Shown here: positions 4,432 to 30,193 of the stretch, piece after piece | Numbering within the stretch: position 1 is the stretch's first letter | Layout of the letters: every line of letters begins with the position of its first letter | Source: Pyrinomonadaceae bacterium | Lineage (GTDB): Bacteria > Acidobacteriota > Blastocatellia > Pyrinomonadales > Pyrinomonadaceae | NCBI GenBank assembly: GCA_036392495.1 | Contig: DASVXV010000163.1 | Coordinates: 2,951-66,950, forward strand | Direction of reading: 5' to 3' | Length of the DNA: 64,000 nucleotides | The notes under the pieces: generated by a model | The model's database searches: none | What the model was told of the DNA's origin: nothing | What the model saw: only the letters and a program-made list of their open reading frames with translations | Translations under genes and position numbers: made by a program

Positions 4432-5177
4432 TTCTCGGCGCGCTCGTAGAGCGCAAGGAATTCCACGTTACCGTCTCCCCCGCGAATCGGAGATTCAATC
4501 GTCCCGCACGCGCGAAGGCCCATTTTTTCCGCCGCCCGATTCACCTCCTCGATGACGCGCGCGTGCTTCGCAGGGTCCTGGACGATGCCGCCACGCCCGA
4601 CCTCACCGCGCCCTACTTCAAACTGAGGCTTGATGAGCGTAACGAGCCGCGCCCCTTCAGTCAACAGCGGAACAATAGCGGGCATGACTTTCGTCGCCGA
4701 GATGAAAGAGACATCCATCACAGCCAGGTCAAATCTCTCTTCGAAATCGTCCGGGGTTAAATACCGTGCGTTGACGCCCTCCCTCACTTCGACGCGCGGG
4801 TCATTTCGCAGACGCCAATCTATCTGATTGTGCCCGACGTCCACAGCGACGACGCGTCGCGCGCCGTGCTGCAACAGGCAATCCGTAAAGCCTCCCGTCG
4901 AAGCGCCGACGTCCAGGCAGAGCAGGCCCGTCACGTCCAGACCGAATTCTCGCAGAGCCGCCTCCAATTTCAGGCCGCCGCGCCCGACGTAGCGTGACGC
5001 CGGATCATCCGCGCCTTTCAAGCGAATCACGGCATCTGGGCCGAACATCTCCGAAGGTTTTAGCACGCGCTGCTCATCGGCCAGCACCACGCCCGCCATC
5101 ACGAGCGCCTGCGCCTTTGTCCGCGACGAGGCCAGCCCACGCTCCACCAGAAGCTTGTCAATGCGCTCACGCTTCAT
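4428..5177 (-). CDS. tlyA: TlyA family 16S/23S rRNA (cytidine-2'-O)-methyltransferase
   Basis: N-terminal S4 domain (RIDKLLVERGLASSRTKAQALV) plus FtsJ-type methyltransferase (LDVGASTGGFTD). Confidence 0.9.
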   Translation of the reverse strand: MKRERIDKLLVERGLASSRTKAQALVMAGVVLADEQRVLKPSEMFGPDAVIRLKGADDPASRYVGRGGLKLEAALREFGLDVTGLLCLDVGASTGGFTDCLLQHGARRVVAVDVGHNQIDWRLRNDPRVEVREGVNARYLTPDDFEERFDLAVMDVSFISATKVMPAIVPLLTEGARLVTLIKPQFEVGRGEVGRGGIVQDPAKHARVIEEVNRAAEKMGLRACGTIESPIRGGDGNVEFLALYERAEK

Positions 5178-5270
5178 AAAAAGAGCGTAAATCGTAAATC
5201 GTGAATCGTAAATAGAGAAAAGCCGCTCTCGTCTATTTACGATTCACGATTTACGATTTACGCTCTTTTT
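5178..5270. repeat. heptad-stem hairpin, family A, 38-bp perfect stem
   Basis: aaaaagagcgtaaatcgtaaatcgtgaatcgtaaatag / 17-nt loop / exact reverse complement. A5 and T5 flanks. Directly abuts the tlyA ATG (5177). Confidence 0.95.
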
Positions 5271-5272
5271 AC

Positions 5273-5986
5273 TTACGGCTGCCTGCCTTCAAAGATGTCC
5301 CGGATACGGTCAATCTCCCTCTGGGCGCGCTCGATCCCGCGTGGGACGTCTATGGCCTCATCATCATCCCTCTGGCGACGGCGGCGCTCTCTTCTCTCTT
5401 CTCGCCTGCGCTCTCTTTCAGCCTGCCTCTCTTCAAGGACTTCGTCCGCGTCATCGTCCTTCTCCGCTTTCTCCTGCTTTTTATCGCGGACCACCGGAGG
5501 AGGAGGCGGCGGCGTGACTTCATCCCTCTTCTTTTCGTTGCGCGCGGTGCGCTCAAGCTCCTCGTCCTTCTCCACGGCGGCAGTCTCCGCAGGTTTCTCC
5601 GGGACGGAAGCGCTGGGTTGCGGCACAGGCGTCGGCTCGACTGTTGGTCCGGAGCCCACACTTTCAACCGGAGCCGCCGGCGCGCTCGCGGCCGGAACGG
5701 TCGTCGCCGCCGCGCTGCGGTTCCTGTAAATGCCTATTACGAGCCCAGCCGCGGCGCCAACGCCGACGGCGGTCAGAACAATCAGGGCGAGCAGGGCGTG
5801 CCGTTTCCAGAAGGGTCTTGTAGCGTGCCCGGCATAATCGCCGTGGCGTATTTGGGAGGTCTGTTGTTCCGCGAGCGGAATGACAGGTCGGGCCGTCATC
5901 GTCGCCTCAGCATCGAAGTGCGGCGACCGCAGAGGCTCGTTCGGATCAACTCCGGTGGGGATGATAATTCTTCGTCTTTCGTTCAT
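5273..5986 (-). CDS. hypothetical single-pass membrane protein with Pro/Ala-rich and highly charged C-terminal region
   Basis: One hydrophobic segment (ALLALIVLTAVGVGAAAGLVIGI), then a PAxP-rich stretch and an E/R/K/D-rich tail. No family recognised. Confidence 0.6.
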   Translation of the reverse strand: MNERRRIIIPTGVDPNEPLRSPHFDAEATMTARPVIPLAEQQTSQIRHGDYAGHATRPFWKRHALLALIVLTAVGVGAAAGLVIGIYRNRSAAATTVPAASAPAAPVESVGSGPTVEPTPVPQPSASVPEKPAETAAVEKDEELERTARNEKKRDEVTPPPPPPVVRDKKQEKAEKDDDADEVLEERQAERERRREERRERRRRQRDDDEAIDVPRGIERAQREIDRIRDIFEGRQP

Positions 5987-22939: not shown

Positions 22940-23650
22940 TTATACGCGGGCGTGCGCCCTCAACCACTCAAAAACGTCTTCGCGCATCGGCTGCGTGATC
23001 TCATGTGCGGCATCATAGGCTTTGACTTCGACTTCCTGCGCCCGCGCGCGAAGCCGCCGAGCATACTCAGCGGTGCGCGACGGTGGATAGAACTCATCGC
23101 GCACGCCGTGAAGGTGAAGAACGGAAGCATCGGTCCGCTTGTAACTCTCGCTTGTTTCCCAATCGCCAGGCAATCCGCCGCAGATGCCTATGACGCCATG
23201 TAAGACTTTCGGGTGCGTGAAACTGAAGCGATAGTTGAGGGCGCAGGACTGTGAAAAGCCCAGCAGAAAGACGCGGTCACGGTCCGCTACATTTTCGTCA
23301 ACGAGCGCGTCAATCAAATCCAGCAGCGCGCGATGGTGGACCGCAACCGAATCTTCCGGGTGAAAGTTCGTCAGCCAGCCGAAACCATAACGCAGCGGCC
23401 CGCCCTCTTCCTTAGGCTCTTTCATGTGTTGGTGGAAACCCTGTAGCGATGCGATGGCGAAATCATCGGGCGCTATCTGCGCGGCCTCGCGCATCATCTG
23501 TCTTTTGTTCGCCCCGTATCCGTGCAGCGCGATGAGTAAAGGCGCAGAGGTGCTTTTCCCCGTCGGCGTGCGCAGCGCGTAATACATCCTGATCTGTGCG
23601 ACGAGCGTGCGCTCGGAGTGCGTGTCAGGGCCGCTTTCCATATCAGACAT
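22940..23650 (-). CDS. alpha/beta hydrolase (phospholipase/carboxylesterase family)
   Basis: LHGYGAN..., GFSQSC nucleophile motif, C-terminal D/H. Start placed at the internal ATG 23650; the upstream part of the track ORF looks non-coding. Confidence 0.75.
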   Translation of the reverse strand: MSDMESGPDTHSERTLVAQIRMYYALRTPTGKSTSAPLLIALHGYGANKRQMMREAAQIAPDDFAIASLQGFHQHMKEPKEEGGPLRYGFGWLTNFHPEDSVAVHHRALLDLIDALVDENVADRDRVFLLGFSQSCALNYRFSFTHPKVLHGVIGICGGLPGDWETSESYKRTDASVLHLHGVRDEFYPPSRTAEYARRLRARAQEVEVKAYDAAHEITQPMREDVFEWLRAHARV

Positions 23651-23953
23651 CACTGGGGTTATACCGCGCCGCGCCGGGAATTGCCAGCCCCGCCCTGACA
23701 ACCTTCCGCCGAAGGCACAGGACCGATGACAAGTTTGTTGACAAGGAATCATGGCGGGTATATTTTTAGCGCCGCTCGCGCCTTTAACCATGGCTGTCAG
23801 GCGTTCTCTTCAGCCTCATCGTTCCTAATTTCTTAGCGTCCGGCCCTCAAACGTCGCGCGCGCGGGTTTTACTAGCCTTAAACGTCCGCGCATTTCCGTT
23901 AAAGCCATCGCCGACGCCAGCAGCTTCCGACGCCCCTCTGCAAAGGAGTCAAG

Positions 23954-26293
23954 ATGCAAAAAAAATTCTTCCCGCCCAAACGAGACTTCAGCTCACTGTC
24001 CCTGAAAGATCTGCTGGAAGCGCGCGACGCTTACCACACACACTTAGCCCATCTGGACAACGTCATCGCCACGGCCATCGGACGCTACCGCATCCGTGTG
24101 AAAGACCCGGACTCCAAAGAAGCCAGAGGACCCAAGGCCTGGCGCGACCGCATGCAGTCGCCCGAACGCACGCTCGGCAACACGGTCATCAAGGCATGGT
24201 CATGGCCGAGCCTGCTGGTCTTCGTCAAGGAGTGGTTTACGCTGGAAGAGATGGTGCGACAGGACCCGGAGCAGGTCGTGCCGCGCTTTCTCTATCTTTC
24301 GGACGGAAGGGTCGTGCCGACCTGCGTCATCCTCGCCGAGCGGCAGGAGAAAGCGCCGCCCCCGCTCCAGAACATAACTTTTCCAGAGCACCTGGTCGGG
24401 GGCGGATACCCCGTCTTCACGGAGAATCAGGGCCAGCAGCACATCGGCTCCATCGGCTGTCTGGTGAGCGACGGCGATTCCGTCTACGCGCTCACCAACC
24501 GCCACGTGACGGGCGAGCTGGGCCGCGAGGTCTTTTCGTTCATCGGCGGCAAAAAGATGCGCGTTGGCATCTCGTCCAGAAGCCGGCTGGACGACCGTGT
24601 CGCGCTGGGCAAGCGGCTGTTCCAGGACGTATATCCAGGCTGGCCCGGCCAGCGGTCCTACGTCAACATCGACGCCGGCCTCATTCACGTGGAGGACCTC
24701 GAATACTGGACCTCACAGGTCTTCGGCATCGGCGAGCTCGGCGACCCCGTTGACCTCAACACGGACACGCTCTCGCTTGACCTCATCGGCTGCCCCGTGC
24801 GCGCCTTCGGCGCAGCCTCCGGCGAGATGGTCGGCGAGATCAGCGCCCTTTTCTACCGCTACAAGTCAGTCGGCGGCTTCGATTACATCAGCGACCTGCT
24901 GATAGGTCCGCGCACAGAATCGTGCAGCGGCTTCTGGGAGGCGGAGCACGACGAAGGTGAGCACGAGGTGGAGTACTGCGAGCCGAATTACGGGACGGTC
25001 GGAGAGAGCGGGGTGCTGAAGACGCGCCCGGGAGATTCCGGCACACTCTGGTTCTTCGACCAGAATATGACTGTCGAGACGGCGCGCTCTAAAGGATACG
25101 CCGGCGCGCGTGCTCGTCGCCTGCGGCCCATCGCGCTTCAATGGGGCGGCCACACGCTGCTCGACGAAAAGAGTGAATCCAAAGCGGAATTCGCTCTCGC
25201 CACCTGTCTGAGCACCATCTGCCGCGAGCTCGATCTGGACGTCATCCCGGACTTCGACATCGGCCACAGCGAATACTGGGGGAAGACCGGTCACTACAAA
25301 ATCGCCGCCAAAGCCTGTGAGCTGGTCGCGGACCCGAAGCTCAAAAAGCTGCTGCTCGCCAACGTCAGTAACATCGCCTTCGGAGATGAGGCGATAGAGC
25401 AGGGCGAGTTGCAGAAGGTCAAGCCGGTCAGCCCGAGCAAGCCGAATCAGCCGTTCGTCCCGCTGGCTGACGTGCCTGACATCGTCTGGCGCGCCTCGCG
25501 CAAGCTGGACGACGCCAACCACTTCGCGGACATGGATCAGGAGGGCGAGGGTGATTTCGCTGGCAAGACTCTTCTGCGCCTCTGCCAGAACCCGGACAAC
25601 GTGGACATCTCTGTCTGGAACGGCTTCTACGACAGCCTCGGCATTGGCCGTAAACGCGGCGCAGCCCCTTTCCGCGTCTGGCAGATCTATAAGCTGATGG
25701 TCGAGTTCGTCAGGAAGAAGAAGGTGGCCGAGTTCGTCTGCGCCGGCGGCATCGTCTCGCATTACGTCGGCGACTCCTGCCAGCCGCTGCACGTCTCATT
25801 CCTGCATCACGGCCGGGAAGGGCATCCTGAAGAGGAGAAGGTGCATTCGGTTTACGAGACTCAGATGATAGATAAAAAAGCGACGGAGATCATCGTGGGC
25901 ATCAACGAGGCGTTGAAGAACACGAAGGCGAAGGCGGACGTCACTGGCGGCCACGCTGCCGCGGTCTCGGTCGTCGAGTTGATGCGCCAGACCGTCAAGA
26001 CGCTCAAGCCCATTAAGGTCATAGAGGCTTTCAACGACGCGCAACAGAATAACCGCATCCCGGACATGTGGAATGCATTGGGTGCGAAGACGATCACCTG
26101 CATGGCCGGCGGCTGTCTGCGCATGGCGTCAATCTGGGCGAGCGCCTGGAAAGAGGGAGGCGGAGGCAATATCGCCAACAGCAAGCTCGTCGCCATCGAA
26201 CACGATGAGCTGATGTCCCTTTATAACGACAAGAACTTTCTCCCGGCCTTCCGCCTGCAAGACGAGGAGTTCGCAGAGGCGCTCCAGGAGTAG
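23954..26293 (+). CDS. fusion protein: trypsin-like serine protease domain plus S1/P1-nuclease/PLC-like zinc domain, no signal peptide
   Basis: Triad candidates TNRHV (His), NIDAGLIHV (Asp), RPGDSGTLWF (Ser). C-terminal YWGKTGHYKIAAKA, NHFADMD, HYVGDSCQPLHVSF and KVHSVYE match the S1-P1 nuclease metal-ligand pattern (WGxxGH, HFxD, GDxxQPLH, HSxWD). Confidence 0.7.
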   Translation: MQKKFFPPKRDFSSLSLKDLLEARDAYHTHLAHLDNVIATAIGRYRIRVKDPDSKEARGPKAWRDRMQSPERTLGNTVIKAWSWPSLLVFVKEWFTLEEMVRQDPEQVVPRFLYLSDGRVVPTCVILAERQEKAPPPLQNITFPEHLVGGGYPVFTENQGQQHIGSIGCLVSDGDSVYALTNRHVTGELGREVFSFIGGKKMRVGISSRSRLDDRVALGKRLFQDVYPGWPGQRSYVNIDAGLIHVEDLEYWTSQVFGIGELGDPVDLNTDTLSLDLIGCPVRAFGAASGEMVGEISALFYRYKSVGGFDYISDLLIGPRTESCSGFWEAEHDEGEHEVEYCEPNYGTVGESGVLKTRPGDSGTLWFFDQNMTVETARSKGYAGARARRLRPIALQWGGHTLLDEKSESKAEFALATCLSTICRELDLDVIPDFDIGHSEYWGKTGHYKIAAKACELVADPKLKKLLLANVSNIAFGDEAIEQGELQKVKPVSPSKPNQPFVPLADVPDIVWRASRKLDDANHFADMDQEGEGDFAGKTLLRLCQNPDNVDISVWNGFYDSLGIGRKRGAAPFRVWQIYKLMVEFVRKKKVAEFVCAGGIVSHYVGDSCQPLHVSFLHHGREGHPEEEKVHSVYETQMIDKKATEIIVGINEALKNTKAKADVTGGHAAAVSVVELMRQTVKTLKPIKVIEAFNDAQQNNRIPDMWNALGAKTITCMAGGCLRMASIWASAWKEGGGGNIANSKLVAIEHDELMSLYNDKNFLPAFRLQDEEFAEALQE

Positions 26294-26325: not shown

Positions 26326-28437
26326 TCAGTTGACGTAGCCGTCGTTACCGTCCTCGCCGTCGCCGCCGCCATCCTCTCCGCCCGCGTCTGTCGTCTCCTC
26401 TGTCAGGACCGCATACGCGGGCGGAGCGCTCTCCTCTTCGAGACTCCAAATCTCGTATAGCTCGGGCGGGACTTCAGTGACAAAGCGCGACGGTTTTTGA
26501 AGGACCGTCTGGCGATTGTAGTCCGTGACCATCAAAGGATAGGTGATGTAAAGCTGCTCTGCGGCGCGCGTCAGTGCGACGTACCAGAGGCGGCGCTCCT
26601 CCTCTTCGCCCTCCGCGTCACGAAGCGAGCGCGGGCTGGGGAATTTGCCGTCGGCCGCCCAGAGGATGAAGACCGCGCGCCACTCCAGGCCCTTCGCCTG
26701 GTGCACGGACGTTAAGGTCAGCATCTCGTCCTCGTCGCTTCCCAGAACGACGTCTTCGCCCGTCAGGGCCTGCGGCGCGCTGTAACGCTCGGTCGAGAGC
26801 AACGCGAGCTCGCCCAGGAACTCTTCCGTAGAGTTGTAGCGCGCGCTGTAGAGCGCCAGCTGCCGCAAATCTTCGAGGCGCGCCTCTGCATTTTCGTAGT
26901 TGCTCGCCAGATACGATTCGTAGCCGCGCGCGAGAATCATCTCGATCTGCCGCGAAGGCGCGTTGCGCGTCTCGTCCCCCACCAGTGCTTCAAGCAGCGC
27001 GAGGAACTCCGTCCACCCGCCCCCGCGTTTCGGAGCGGCCTGGAAATCTGCGCGCCTGACGAGCGCGAGCGGGTCCGGCGCGTAGGCCAATTGCTCCCAG
27101 ATTCTGCCGGCGGTCGCCGGACCGACGTTCGGAATCAGGCGCAGGACGCGCTTCCAGGCCAGCTCGTCGCGTGGGTTTGTGACGAGGCGCAGGTACGAGA
27201 CGACGTCCTTGATGTGCGCCTGCTCGAAGAAACGCACGCCGCTGCGGACGCGATACGGGATACCGCGCCGCGTCAGCTCCAGTTGCAGTTCGAGCGAATG
27301 ATAGTGAGAGCGGTAGAGCACTGCCGTCTCTTCGAGCGGGATGCCTTCGTCCCGTAGCTCAAGAATGCGCGCGGCTGTAAAGGCTGCCTGCTGGTCCGCG
27401 TCGCGGCAAGGGATGAGAGCCGGGGGCTGCCCCTTCGAGTCGCGCGCCGGACGCAGGGTTTTGGGAAACTGTTTGCGGTTCGAACTGATTGAGACGTTGG
27501 CGAGCGCCAGGATTTCGGGCGTGGAGCGATAGTTGGTCTCCAGGCGATAGACGCGCGCCTCCGGGTAGCGCGACGGAAACTCGTAGATGTTCGTAAACTC
27601 CGCGCCGCGCCAGGCGTAAATGCTCTGCGCGTCGTCGCCGACGACCATCACGTTGCGGTGTTTGATGCCCAGCAAATCAACAATCTCCGCCTGGAGCTTG
27701 TTCGTATCCTGGTATTCGTCAACCAGGATGTGCTGGAACTGGTCCGCATAAAGCGCCGCGATGTCCGCCTTCTCCATCAAGAGGCGTTTCCAGTTGAGCA
27801 GCAGGTCGTCATAGTCCATCACGTTGCGCTCACGCTTGCGCGCCATGTAGATCGCGTCAACGCGCTTGATAGCTTGCGTCAGCGGCTCGAAATGCGGGTA
27901 GCGGCGCGCGACCACGTCTTCCAGGGGACGGTCCGTATTGTTGGCGAAGCTGATCAGGTCCTGCAAGATTTCCGCCTTCGGAAAACGGCGCGCCTTTGTG
28001 TCAATGCCCGCTTCGTCCACGCAGGCCGAGAGGAAATCTTTCGAGTCTTCCGAATCGAGAATCGAGTAGTTGGACTCAAAACCGATTGACGCGGCGTGGC
28101 GACGCAGGATGAGATTGGCGATGCGGTGGAACGTCCCGCCCCAGACACGGCGCACGTCGCCGCCGCTCGTCAGAGTTTCGACGCGGCGGAGCATCTCGCG
28201 CGCCGCCCGGTTAGTGAAGGTCGCGAGCATGATGCGCGCGGGAGCGACCCCCTGCTCAATGAGGTAAGCGACGCGGTAGGTGACGGCGCGCGTCTTGCCG
28301 GAGCCAGCGCCCGCGACGACCAGGGCAGCCCCCGGCGACCCCGTGGCGACCGCGAACTGCTCCTCGTTGAGTTCCGCGCGATAGCGGGCCAAACGGTCCG
28401 GCTGCACTGCGCCGCGTTTGATGACGTAGCGTGTCAT
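26326..28437 (-). CDS. UvrD/PcrA/Rep-type SF1 DNA helicase
   Basis: AGAGSGKT Walker A, TFTNRAAREM, VDEYQDTN and VGDDAQSIYAWRGA motifs. Acidic Gly/Asp tail. Confidence 0.9.
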   Translation of the reverse strand: MTRYVIKRGAVQPDRLARYRAELNEEQFAVATGSPGAALVVAGAGSGKTRAVTYRVAYLIEQGVAPARIMLATFTNRAAREMLRRVETLTSGGDVRRVWGGTFHRIANLILRRHAASIGFESNYSILDSEDSKDFLSACVDEAGIDTKARRFPKAEILQDLISFANNTDRPLEDVVARRYPHFEPLTQAIKRVDAIYMARKRERNVMDYDDLLLNWKRLLMEKADIAALYADQFQHILVDEYQDTNKLQAEIVDLLGIKHRNVMVVGDDAQSIYAWRGAEFTNIYEFPSRYPEARVYRLETNYRSTPEILALANVSISSNRKQFPKTLRPARDSKGQPPALIPCRDADQQAAFTAARILELRDEGIPLEETAVLYRSHYHSLELQLELTRRGIPYRVRSGVRFFEQAHIKDVVSYLRLVTNPRDELAWKRVLRLIPNVGPATAGRIWEQLAYAPDPLALVRRADFQAAPKRGGGWTEFLALLEALVGDETRNAPSRQIEMILARGYESYLASNYENAEARLEDLRQLALYSARYNSTEEFLGELALLSTERYSAPQALTGEDVVLGSDEDEMLTLTSVHQAKGLEWRAVFILWAADGKFPSPRSLRDAEGEEEERRLWYVALTRAAEQLYITYPLMVTDYNRQTVLQKPSRFVTEVPPELYEIWSLEEESAPPAYAVLTEETTDAGGEDGGGDGEDGNDGYVN

Positions 28438-28541: not shown

Positions 28542-28697
28542 CAGGGTCTATTCATTTTCGGAGATTGAGGAAAGTAGAGCAATAGGACTGTCCACGAAGC
28601 CACACGAAACGACACTAAATTGTCGTGGTTTGTTTCGTGTCGTTTCGTGTGGCGCGCGTGGATTGTTCCTTGTTCCGCCGAGTATGAATAGACCCTG
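28542..28697. repeat. 156-bp nested inverted-repeat element (MITE-like or structured RNA)
   Basis: 14-bp perfect terminal IR cagggtctattcat / atgaatagaccctg. Inner hairpin gccacacgaaacgacac...gtgtcgtttcgtgtggc. CTTTCAG direct repeats at 28535-28541 and 28700-28706 (2-nt offset on the right). Confidence 0.55.
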
Positions 28698-28785
28698 GGC
28701 TTTCAGAATTCCGCCTTTTCTTGTTAGGATGAATGGCGTACCAACTTTCAAACTTTCATCCAATCCGGAAGAGAGGTTAAGCGAG

Positions 28786-29091
28786 ATGAAATTCCCAGGC
28801 GGGCTGAACATTCAGCAGATGATGAAGCAGGCGCAACAGATGCAGGAGAAGATGGCGCGCGAGATGGAGGAGCTGGTCGTCGAGGCTTCCTCGGGCGGAG
28901 GCGTCGTCACGGTCCAGATGAAGGGCACGCACGAGGTCGTGGGACTCAAGATTGACCCGGAGGCCGTCAAGGAAGACGACATCGAGATGCTTCAGGACAT
29001 GATCGTCGCCGCCGTCAACGAAGCGAACCGCAAGATTGATGAAGCCATGAAAGGCAAACTGGGCGGCATGCTCCCGCCAGGACTTCTCTAA
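28786..29091 (+). CDS. ybaB: YbaB/EbfC family nucleoid-associated protein
   Basis: [23 protein letters not shown]..., 101 aa. The track ORF start at 28630 is over-extended. Confidence 0.9.
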
Positions 29092-29575
29092 AAAAGGGGT
29101 CGGGGGCCAGGGGTCGGGGGCCGGAAAGCGTGGAGGCGTGTATGGCTATCAATAGTTTCCGCGATCTCAGGGTCTGGCAGGCAGGGATGGAGTTAGTAGA
29201 ACAGGTATATCTTCTAACGCAGGCATTCCCTAAACAGGAGATTTATGGATTAACCAGTCAGATTCAGCGCGCTGCCGTTTCCGTCCCTTCAAATATTGCT
29301 GAAGGACACACGAGAGAACATAGCAAAGAATTCTTACACCACTTGTCAATGGCTCAAGCGTCCTTGGCTGAGCTAGAAACTCAATTGGAAATAGCGGCGC
29401 GCTTGAAGTATATCTTACCCGATAAGCTTGAGCGGACTCTTCAGCAAGTTGCTTCATTAGGCAAGCAACTTTATGCCCTGCGGAATGCTTTAATGAGAGG
29501 ATACAAAGAATAGTGGTCGGATGTTAATAGAAGCCTTTCACCGGCCCCTGGCCCCTGGCCCCCGACCCCTTTTTA
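29091..29575. repeat. 34-bp heptad inverted repeat (family F) enclosing the four-helix-bundle gene
   Basis: Left arm aaaaaggggtcgggggccaggggtcgggggccgg (29091-29124). Right arm ccggcccctggcccctggcccccgaccccttttt (29541-29574). 31 of 34 positions complementary, 416-nt 'loop'. Confidence 0.9.
29142..29513 (+). CDS. four-helix-bundle protein (23S rRNA intervening-sequence protein family, TIGR02436-like)
   Basis: FRDLRVWQ..., YGLTSQIQRAAVSVPSNIAEG, EFLHHLSMAQASLAELETQL are hallmark motifs. ATG at 29142 after GGAGG. Clearly AT-richer codon usage than the flanking genes. Confidence 0.85.
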   Translation: MAINSFRDLRVWQAGMELVEQVYLLTQAFPKQEIYGLTSQIQRAAVSVPSNIAEGHTREHSKEFLHHLSMAQASLAELETQLEIAARLKYILPDKLERTLQQVASLGKQLYALRNALMRGYKE

Positions 29576-29578
29576 ATC

Positions 29579-30192
<614 letters not shown>

Positions 30193-30193
<1 letters not shown>

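Follow-up and report, generated by a model that had tools for sequence, protein, structure and literature searches.

A NAL1-type serine protease fused to a PLC/P1-type zinc domain in a widespread family of bacterial proteins, a candidate self-processing cytoplasmic proenzyme

Zinc-dependent phospholipases C (PLC) and S1/P1 nucleases are normally secreted enzymes. In the PLC/P1 superfamily that they form, one zinc ion is bound by the mature N-terminal Trp through its free alpha-amino group and its carbonyl. In S1 nuclease, loss of the signal peptide leaves Trp21 as the first residue, and the main chain of this N-terminus binds zinc (PMC5201275). The Listeria enzyme LmPC-PLC is an inactive proenzyme until it is cleaved by Mpl, and a single residue added before W1 abolishes its activity (PMC10576769). 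NARROW LEAF 1 (NAL1) of rice is a serine protease with the triad H234/D291/S385, whose substrates in trans are TPR2 and FZP and whose triad becomes active only within a hexameric cage (PMC12012508). Protease-gated pronucleases are furthermore established in bacteria (bioRxiv 10.1101/2025.07.28.667249; PMC12642450). Here we describe a gene that joins a NAL1-type protease and a PLC/P1-type zinc domain in one polypeptide of 779 residues. It lies in a 64,000-nucleotide stretch of DNA from a Pyrinomonadaceae bacterium (contig DASVXV010000163.1, positions 2,951 to 66,950 of the forward strand), which we refer to as the window. We propose with moderate confidence that the product is a single-chain cytoplasmic proenzyme whose protease domain cleaves the protein's own Tyr441-Trp442 bond and thereby frees the zinc enzyme.

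The N-terminal half of the protein, residues 1-430, is a NAL1-type chymotrypsin-fold (PA clan) serine protease with the triad H184/D240/S362. An earlier note, made from the letters of the DNA alone, had read an ordered His/Asp/Ser set in chymotrypsin-fold context as a trypsin-like protease; the fold holds, and 'trypsin-like' is refined here to NAL1-type. All motifs quoted in that note are found at the expected residues, in this half ALTNRHV (179-185), VNIDAGLIHV (237-246) and RPGDSGTLWF (358-367). Single-protein searches of Pfam and PDB sequences gave weak matches to Nal1_C and to rice NARROW LEAF 1, the score for Nal1_C (PF25819) lying just below the gathering threshold (24.1 vs 26.1 bits), and precomputed PF25819 matches are present in many relatives. 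A 28-sequence family profile finds NAL1 among the PDB sequences at E 2.5e-11 over profile positions 83-335, in an alignment that begins ahead of the protease domain, in a region that ATP stabilises in NAL1, extends to the catalytic Ser and places LTNRHV, D-G and GDSG on the NAL1 triad.

This is further supported by structure comparison. In a Foldseek search with the full-length AlphaFold2 (AF2) model, which has a mean predicted local distance difference test score (pLDDT) of 74, matches 1-34 are all NAL1 chains (E 2e-18, TM-target 0.60-0.73, ~440 aligned columns) with the triad aligned, followed by alpha-lytic protease and SGPB at E ~1e-5. Residues 1-430 superpose on NAL1 constructs 36-458 (PDB 8hau, 7y77, 8pmg, 8pn2), and both proteins are intracellular. 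Unlike the fusion, NAL1 is a plant protein without a zinc domain, its part past residue 458 lying outside the described domains. Just upstream of GDS362 an acidic, Cys-containing insertion (SCSGFWEAEHDEGEHEVEYCEPNYG..., residues 320-356) is predicted to be disordered (pLDDT <50).

Residues 442-779 are, according to the modelled fold, a predicted phosphodiesterase that represents a distinct family within the zinc PLC/S1-P1 superfamily. The fold was set by a separate AF2 model and Foldseek because the search of PDB sequences was too weak: with the full-length profile nothing was found for the zinc domain up to E 10, and a domain-only profile gave a marginal match to ENDO2 (E 0.11), whose alignment is usable, not statistical proof. 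Likewise, no zinc-domain match was found among the 50 matches listed for the full-length model, all of which are proteases. The AF2 model begun at Trp442 has a pLDDT of 92 and a predicted template modelling score (pTM) of 0.92. Its Foldseek ranks 1-34 belong exclusively to the PLC/P1 superfamily (probability 0.80-1.00), with noise from rank 35 on, in the order Bacillus cereus phosphatidylcholine PLC (PC-PLC; E 1.7e-3, TM-target 0.66), Listeria PlcB (0.70), SmNuc1, P1 (0.62), S1 (0.63), plant ENDO2/TBN1 and clostridial alpha-toxin. Foldseek searches with AF2 models of the whole protein and of the zinc domain, much as the earlier note had suggested, thus support both folds.

In the HMMER alignment profile position 1 (W442) falls on Trp1 of mature Arabidopsis ENDO2, so that WGKTGH (442-447) matches WGKEGH, residues 1-6 of the mature nuclease. 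Further along, HYVGDACQPLH...VHSVYE falls on ENDO2 HFMGDIHQPLH...LHHIWD, which aligns the HxxGDxxQPLH and H...D elements of S1/P1 nucleases. The corresponding motifs of the window protein are GDSCQPLH (606-613) and VHSVYE (630-635), preceded by NHFADMD (522-528). The nine positions that bind three zinc ions in the superfamily (Trp1, His, Asp, His, His, Asp, His, His, Asp/Glu) are all present. W442, H447, H603, D607, H613, H631 and E635 are aligned to ENDO2 by HMMER, whereas D509 and H523 are assigned by motif only; we take D509 to be the equivalent of Asp45 of P1 nuclease and Asp55 of PLC, and H523 presumably corresponds to H60 (P1) and H69 (PLC). Both the Foldseek ranks and the ENDO2 alignment bear out the S1-P1/zinc PLC ligand pattern that the earlier note had recognised in the C-terminal part.

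The same note had called the domain S1/P1-nuclease-like. The superfamily assignment stands, while 'nuclease' specifically is not established. PLC structures rank higher and match slightly better (B. cereus PC-PLC, 1ah7; Listeria PlcB, 8cqm; alpha-toxin, 1ca1; TM-target 0.66-0.70, with Trp1 as a common ligand) than the S1/P1 nucleases P1 (1ak0), S1 (5fba), AtENDO2/BFN2 (3w52, 4cxo), TBN1 and SmNuc1, which have the same fold at a TM-target of 0.5-0.63. The Pfam matches are equal (E 3e-4) and both below threshold: S1-P1_nuclease (PF02265) scores 21.0 vs 29.5 bits, with residues 442-648 on profile positions 1-168 of 258, and Zn_dep_PLPC (PF00882) 21.1 vs 26.8 bits, over residues 577-659 only. The Trp-to-His spacing WGxxGH, in which the protein differs from the zinc PLCs, is presumably nuclease-like, and HSxYE and HF.D.D resemble PLC, as presumably does the last ligand, which is mostly Glu. 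The HF.D motif does not discriminate between nuclease and PLC because it is common to both. The domain is ~90 residues longer than the zinc PLCs, and its net charge (median -1) gives no discrimination between lipid and nucleic-acid substrates.

In agreement with the earlier note, which had seen a 779-residue protein without signal peptide, hydropathy and relatives indicate that the fusion protein is cytoplasmic. The ATG of the open reading frame (ORF) is the first possible start past the upstream in-frame stop, and its Shine-Dalgarno sequence, read directly, lies 5 nt ahead of it. No signal peptide was found in the window protein, where the Kyte-Doolittle maximum in the first 45 residues is 1.28 (12-residue window), nor was a transmembrane-like segment. 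No hydrophobic N-terminus was found in 274 full-length relatives, the sole exception being an artefact of ORF extension; homologs with signal peptides, which the earlier note had named as a sign of a mis-called start, were thus absent from this set. These relatives have a conserved DLLEAR helix whose start is 13-22 residues away from the N-terminus. The N-terminal MxxxFPPxRDFxSLS aligns across phyla.

The fusion belongs to a large family. A word-indexed search gave >1947 matches, and among the best 120 of these nearly all are full length (96-100% coverage in 115) at 48-80% identity, annotated as 'hypothetical' and occasionally as 'S1/P1 nuclease'. An exhaustive search of 50%-identity representatives finds the fusion architecture in at least 1342 clusters at E <=1e-3 and in 338 at E <=1e-30, and a scan of one genome per species finds 344 carrier species, mostly soil bacteria. 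The closest relatives of the window protein are from Acidobacteriota (79% identity). Carriers also include Chloroflexota (Ktedonobacter among them), Myxococcota (Archangium, Hyalangium), Verrucomicrobiota, Bacteroidota and Ignavibacteria, as well as many Bradyrhizobium species, Rhizobium, Cupriavidus basilensis and Sphingomonas. In 78 full-length representatives that are pairwise <=50% identical, H184 and S362 are invariant (78/78) and D240 is present in 77/78. Of the zinc ligands, H447, D509 and H523 are found in 78/78 and W442, H603, D607, H613 and H631 in 77/78, while position 635 is Glu or Asp in all (65 Glu, 13 Asp). Both halves are under purifying selection across the family, and the matches to triad and ligand motifs are far beyond chance.

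In Ktedonobacter racemifer DSM 44963 (locus L023, 7001-10416) the gene is split by ~1.2 kb containing two ORFs with DDE_3 and HTH_32/HTH_29, an IS630-like transposase, and is a pseudogene, while Ktedonobacter sp. SOSP1-85 has two paralogues in one genome on separate contigs (L021 and L032; 49% and 52% identity to the query). A full-length, 52% identical copy on a 5-kb contig of a Nitrososphaeraceae archaeon metagenome-assembled genome (L011, 231-2417) reflects either inter-domain transfer or a binning error. The metagenomic protein P0230 (906 aa) agrees with the family in its protease and in the zinc domain's first third, up to NHFADMD, and continues with a different, longer C-terminal part with a faint match to PADLOC mad2 (E 9e-5). 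Short relatives that start with 'MQWGG' or within the zinc domain were considered as natural split genes and judged to be fragmentary gene calls.

As encoded, the ligand Trp is internal (residue 442) and is not the mature N-terminus, which it would become only after the proposed cleavage. As the polypeptide is predicted to be cytoplasmic, a signal peptidase offers no route to a free Trp442. Methionine aminopeptidase leaves Met in place before a bulky residue such as Trp. With Trp442 internal and a protease fused directly upstream, the simplest reading is therefore that this protease makes the N-terminus. The linker at the junction (residues 433-443) has a pLDDT <50 and is predicted to be flexible or disordered. 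It is conserved where a cut would fall: of 303 members, 252 (83%) have Tyr and 7 have Phe as the residue before Trp (P1), 222 have Glu at P2, and the Trp is followed by Gly. The equivalents of P1 and P2 in the secreted relatives fall outside the mature enzyme.

To look for a counterpart of this conservation in the protease, two motifs expected to form the cleft of a chymotrypsin-fold protease were named before the data were viewed, the region before GDS362 and the QWGG strand 396-399. Within the protease domain, no position differs more than 399 between members whose P1 is aromatic and the others. Among representatives that are <=50% identical, it is Gly in 49 and Ala in 2 of 51 members with aromatic P1, as compared to Gln, Glu, Arg or Lys in 11/11 with Y/F-[S/T/V/I]-W junctions; in further separate lineages that lost the aromatic P1 it is Ser, Ala, Arg or Leu. 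On a neighbour-joining (NJ) tree of 251 members, built with the tested columns excluded, parsimony on binary traits gives 11 changes of P1 class and 10 of position 399, of which 7 fall on the same branch of 500 (hypergeometric P ~3e-11), including one joint reversal. Against an empirical null of 697 alignment positions, 399 ranks first, with 357 and 396 next among conserved positions; all three sit in the T357-x-P-G-D-S362 and Q396-W-G-G399 motifs. Thus, in the alignment the residue before Trp442 co-evolves with the proposed cleft motifs of the protease.

From these data we infer cleavage and its site as follows. The protease half (1-430) would cut between Tyr441 and Trp442, either in cis or between the subunits of a NAL1-like oligomer. 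This would free a 338-residue enzyme that starts with WGKTGH and has a complete metal site with three zinc ions. Cleavage could be constitutive maturation, for instance of an intracellular lipid or nucleic-acid turnover enzyme, or a triggered switch, and the substrate of the freed enzyme may be either phospholipid or nucleic acid.

Several points weigh against this proposal. The interdomain confidence of the AF2 model is low (pTM 0.54). NAL1 is reported to cleave FZP at His residues, not Tyr (PMC12012508). P1 is not invariant and varies in ~15% of members, with Thr in 23, Ser in 9, Arg in 5 and Val in 4 of the 303, and an alphaproteobacterial clade with the junction PET-W changed P1 while its Gly399 is unchanged. 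The tree behind the parsimony test is a quick NJ tree, and the traits are binary. By analogy to the 189-195 and 214-217 motifs of chymotrypsin, residues 357, 396 and 399 would line the S1/substrate cleft, and the linker, too, is placed in the protease active site by analogy. Furthermore, a free cytoplasmic nuclease or phospholipase would need further control, none of which was identified.

The best-surviving alternative keeps the same chemistry and gives it another purpose. In this possible but doubtful view the gene would be a single-gene anti-phage or abortive-infection system in which cleavage is held until infection, when, for example, a cue drives assembly of a NAL1-like cage and the freed nuclease or phospholipase kills or arrests the cell. 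The PADLOC-DB model PDLC03017, 'trypsin-like', matches the window protein at E 3.7e-26 over profile positions 12-370; in the second half of its zinc domain the window protein departs from the model. P0208, P0209 and P0166 match over the full length of the model, P0208 at E 1.4e-66 and positions 12-609 of 611. This end-to-end match to relatives means that a sister clade has already been flagged by PADLOC-DB, so that the fusion architecture, of which the earlier note knew no characterised example, is not unrecorded. PADLOC attaches no system name to PDLC03017, and our literature search for its system returned related concepts (retron type XI, Hachiman/Avs pronucleases, a CARD-NLR-like system) and did not find the model itself. 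In addition, gating of death effectors by a protease is common in defence (10.1101/2025.07.28.667249; PMC12642450), trypsin-NucA fusions are predicted in conflict systems (PMC7159879), the phyletic spread is patchy across many phyla, and some copies are decaying or disrupted by insertion sequences.

The genomic context argues against this alternative. With neighbour ORFs called by a codon-usage-trained caller, PADLOC matches at 1e-10 among the 143 flanking proteins of ~38 non-redundant loci come only from two generic UvrD helicases, and no Pfam family occurs in more than 4 of these proteins. The three genes on either side of the fusion gene at 83 loci have no neighbour family in common beyond genus-level synteny, and no conserved partner, immunity or sensor gene was found among the neighbours of relatives. 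Across many Bradyrhizobium and Archangium species the synteny of the locus is stable. Among 50,697 phage records not one copy was found, and 72,556 plasmids have only 5, all on megaplasmids or chromids and two of them broken. The window gene itself lies among housekeeping genes (ybaB, recR, uvrD), and the fusion protein has no recognisable sensor domain. The gene therefore does not look like a typical defence-island gene. Of the protease-activated effector logic in defence or abortive infection that the earlier note had suspected, the activation part has gained ground, as a free Trp is needed and junction and cleft co-evolve, whereas the defence context was not borne out.

Two of the plasmid copies, H3 (Neorhizobium galegae, CP090555.1) and H5 (Sinorhizobium sp. 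B11, CP091033.1), are in 4 and 2 pieces called as several hypothetical proteins and are apparently decaying or frameshifted. P0208, the best PDLC03017 match, is encoded at locus L084 convergently with a small PLD-like (PLDc_2) gene (4651-5274, minus strand) and downstream of a GntR regulator; the arrangement is seen at one locus only, and the context of GntR regulator, binding protein and PLD-like gene is uninformative.

A more far-reaching variant, which we put forward only tentatively and consider rather unlikely, is a stand-alone executioner in one polypeptide. Assembly of a NAL1-type cage would be the switch, the Tyr-Trp bond would be cut, and the freed PLC/P1 enzyme would destroy membrane lipid or nucleic acid, which would make the family a new one-gene suicide or defence class; it might also be the bacterial ancestor of the plant growth regulator NAL1, in which the protease was retained and the effector lost.

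Less probable still is an explanation without any self-cleavage, in which the protease would have other proteins as substrates, in the way that NAL1 has TPR2 and FZP, and the zinc domain would be either an enzyme whose Trp stays internal and whose metal site is modified, or a module for substrate binding or regulation. NAL1 is indeed a trans-acting protease with defined protein substrates (PMC12012508), the linker is not confidently docked in the AF2 model, and P1 varies as described above. In contrast, the near-invariance of the nine ligand positions including Trp442, and of Gly443, argues for a catalytic, canonical metal site, and the studied enzyme loses its activity when a single residue is added ahead of W1 (PMC10576769). 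Moreover, a zinc domain unrelated to the specificity of the protease would not explain why conserved residues before the Trp co-evolve with the cleft motifs.

Finally, a secreted S1/P1-type enzyme with a mis-called start, or a set of chance motif matches, is highly improbable, even though enzymes of this type are normally exported, given the first possible start at 23954 with its Shine-Dalgarno sequence, the aligned and non-hydrophobic N-termini of the relatives and the full-length architecture kept in at least 1342 clusters.

If self-cleavage occurs as proposed, the protein would resemble PlcB, an inactive proenzyme activated by proteolytic loss of an N-terminal propeptide (PMC10576769). The zinc PLCs are, however, secreted with a signal peptide and a propeptide, that of PlcB has 26 residues, and its activator Mpl is a separate metalloprotease, whereas the 'propeptide' of the window protein would comprise 441 residues and itself be a serine protease. 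S1/P1 nucleases differ in being secreted, often glycosylated, disulfide-bonded single-domain proteins whose Trp1 is made by signal peptidase. The protease-gated defence modules (HamM/protease-HamA, Avs, Lamassu and canu, with MBL, alpha/beta-hydrolase, Pepco as well as EACC1) are alike in that a latent effector is switched on by the site-specific cut of a dedicated trypsin- or caspase-like protease. In contrast to the fusion, they consist of two genes, are joined to sensors (STAND, Hachiman, reverse transcriptase) and use other effector folds. They also remove blocking insertions or tails, while the window protein would create a metal-binding N-terminus without sensor or partner gene. In the literature we found no description of the fusion family, of bacterial NAL1 homologues or of a PLC/S1-P1 domain with a protease in defence. 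The novelty lies in combining, within one cytoplasmic chain, a protease of the NAL1 type with an enzyme of the PLC/P1 type, and activation by making a metal-binding N-terminus would be new as well.

The features of the gene are collected in Table 1. As stated in the earlier note, and read here from the coordinates, the fusion gene lies between a divergent esterase (22940..23791, minus strand) and a convergent UvrD helicase (26326..28437, minus strand; 32 bp apart), beyond which ybaB (28630-29091) and recR (29579-30193) follow. A promoter and terminator scan found no promoter-like site between the esterase and the fusion start codon, its one match lying inside the esterase gene. The esterase is a member of the Abhydrolase_2 'phospholipase/carboxylesterase' family (E 1e-18). 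As a lipid-related neighbour it hints at a PLC-like enzyme, but the pairing is kept in the closest relative (L001) only. Between ybaB and recR lies a gene (29130-29513, plus strand) for a 127-aa bAvd-like or '23S rRNA intervening sequence' four-helix protein (PF05635, E 7e-38). In the syntenic relative L001 no gene separates ybaB from recR, so this gene is a small lineage-specific insertion in a conserved pair.

Table 1. Coordinates of the fusion gene and its features in the window
Feature	Position	Strand	Basis
Shine-Dalgarno GGAG	23945..23948	+	sequence read directly
Whole gene, NAL1-like protease + PLC/P1-type zinc domain, including stop codon	23954..26293	+	
Residues 1-150, N-terminal region; from ~residue 83 aligns with the NAL1 part preceding the protease domain	23954..24403	+	profile, Foldseek; NAL1 limits PMC12012508
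Residues 151-430, chymotrypsin-fold serine protease domain, NAL1-like	24404..25243	+	Pfam, profile, Foldseek
Catalytic His184, LTNRHV (= NAL1 LTNRHV, H234)	24503..24505	+	HMMER alignment, conservation
Catalytic Asp240, NIDAGL (= NAL1 RADGAF, D291)	24671..24673	+	HMMER alignment, conservation
Residues 320-356, acidic low-confidence insertion, closest relatives only	24911..25021	+	AF2, family alignment
Catalytic Ser362, GDSGT (= NAL1 GDSGS, S385)	25037..25039	+	HMMER alignment, conservation
Q396-W-G-G399, proposed substrate-cleft wall; Gly399 co-evolves with the residue before Trp442	25139..25150	+	
Residues 431-441, flexible linker; its last two residues, E440-Y441, are the proposed P2-P1 of the cleavage site	25244..25276	+	
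Residues 442-779, all-helical PLC/P1-nuclease-fold zinc domain (predicted)	25277..26290	+	AF2, Foldseek, HMMER
W442-G-K-T-G-H447 (= S1/P1 Trp1...His6, first zinc ligands)	25277..25294	+	HMMER, conservation
Asp509 (LADVPD), invariant	25478..25480	+	conservation
N-H523-F-A-D526-M-D528, HF.D(.D) ligand motif	25517..25537	+	conservation, family alignment
H603-YVG-D607-SCQPL-H613 ligand motif (ENDO2 HFMGDIHQPLH)	25760..25792	+	HMMER, conservation
H631-SVY-E635 ligand motif (ENDO2 H..WD)	25844..25858	+	HMMER, conservation

If the proposed self-cleavage is true, a class of enzymes regarded as secretion-dependent, whose metal site requires an N-terminal Trp obtainable solely by post-translational cleavage, would have been made to work in the cytoplasm by fusion to its own maturation protease, which would provide a built-in zymogen switch for a potentially lethal phosphodiesterase. 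The recently recognised bacterial protease-gated effectors would gain an effector fold and a principle of activation that are both new, the principle being that a metal ligand is created and not a blocking segment removed. The NAL1 protease family, so far studied only as a rice yield gene, would also be placed in a bacterial biochemical context, in a fusion family that is large and present in the well-studied soil genera Bradyrhizobium, Archangium, Ktedonobacter and Cupriavidus.

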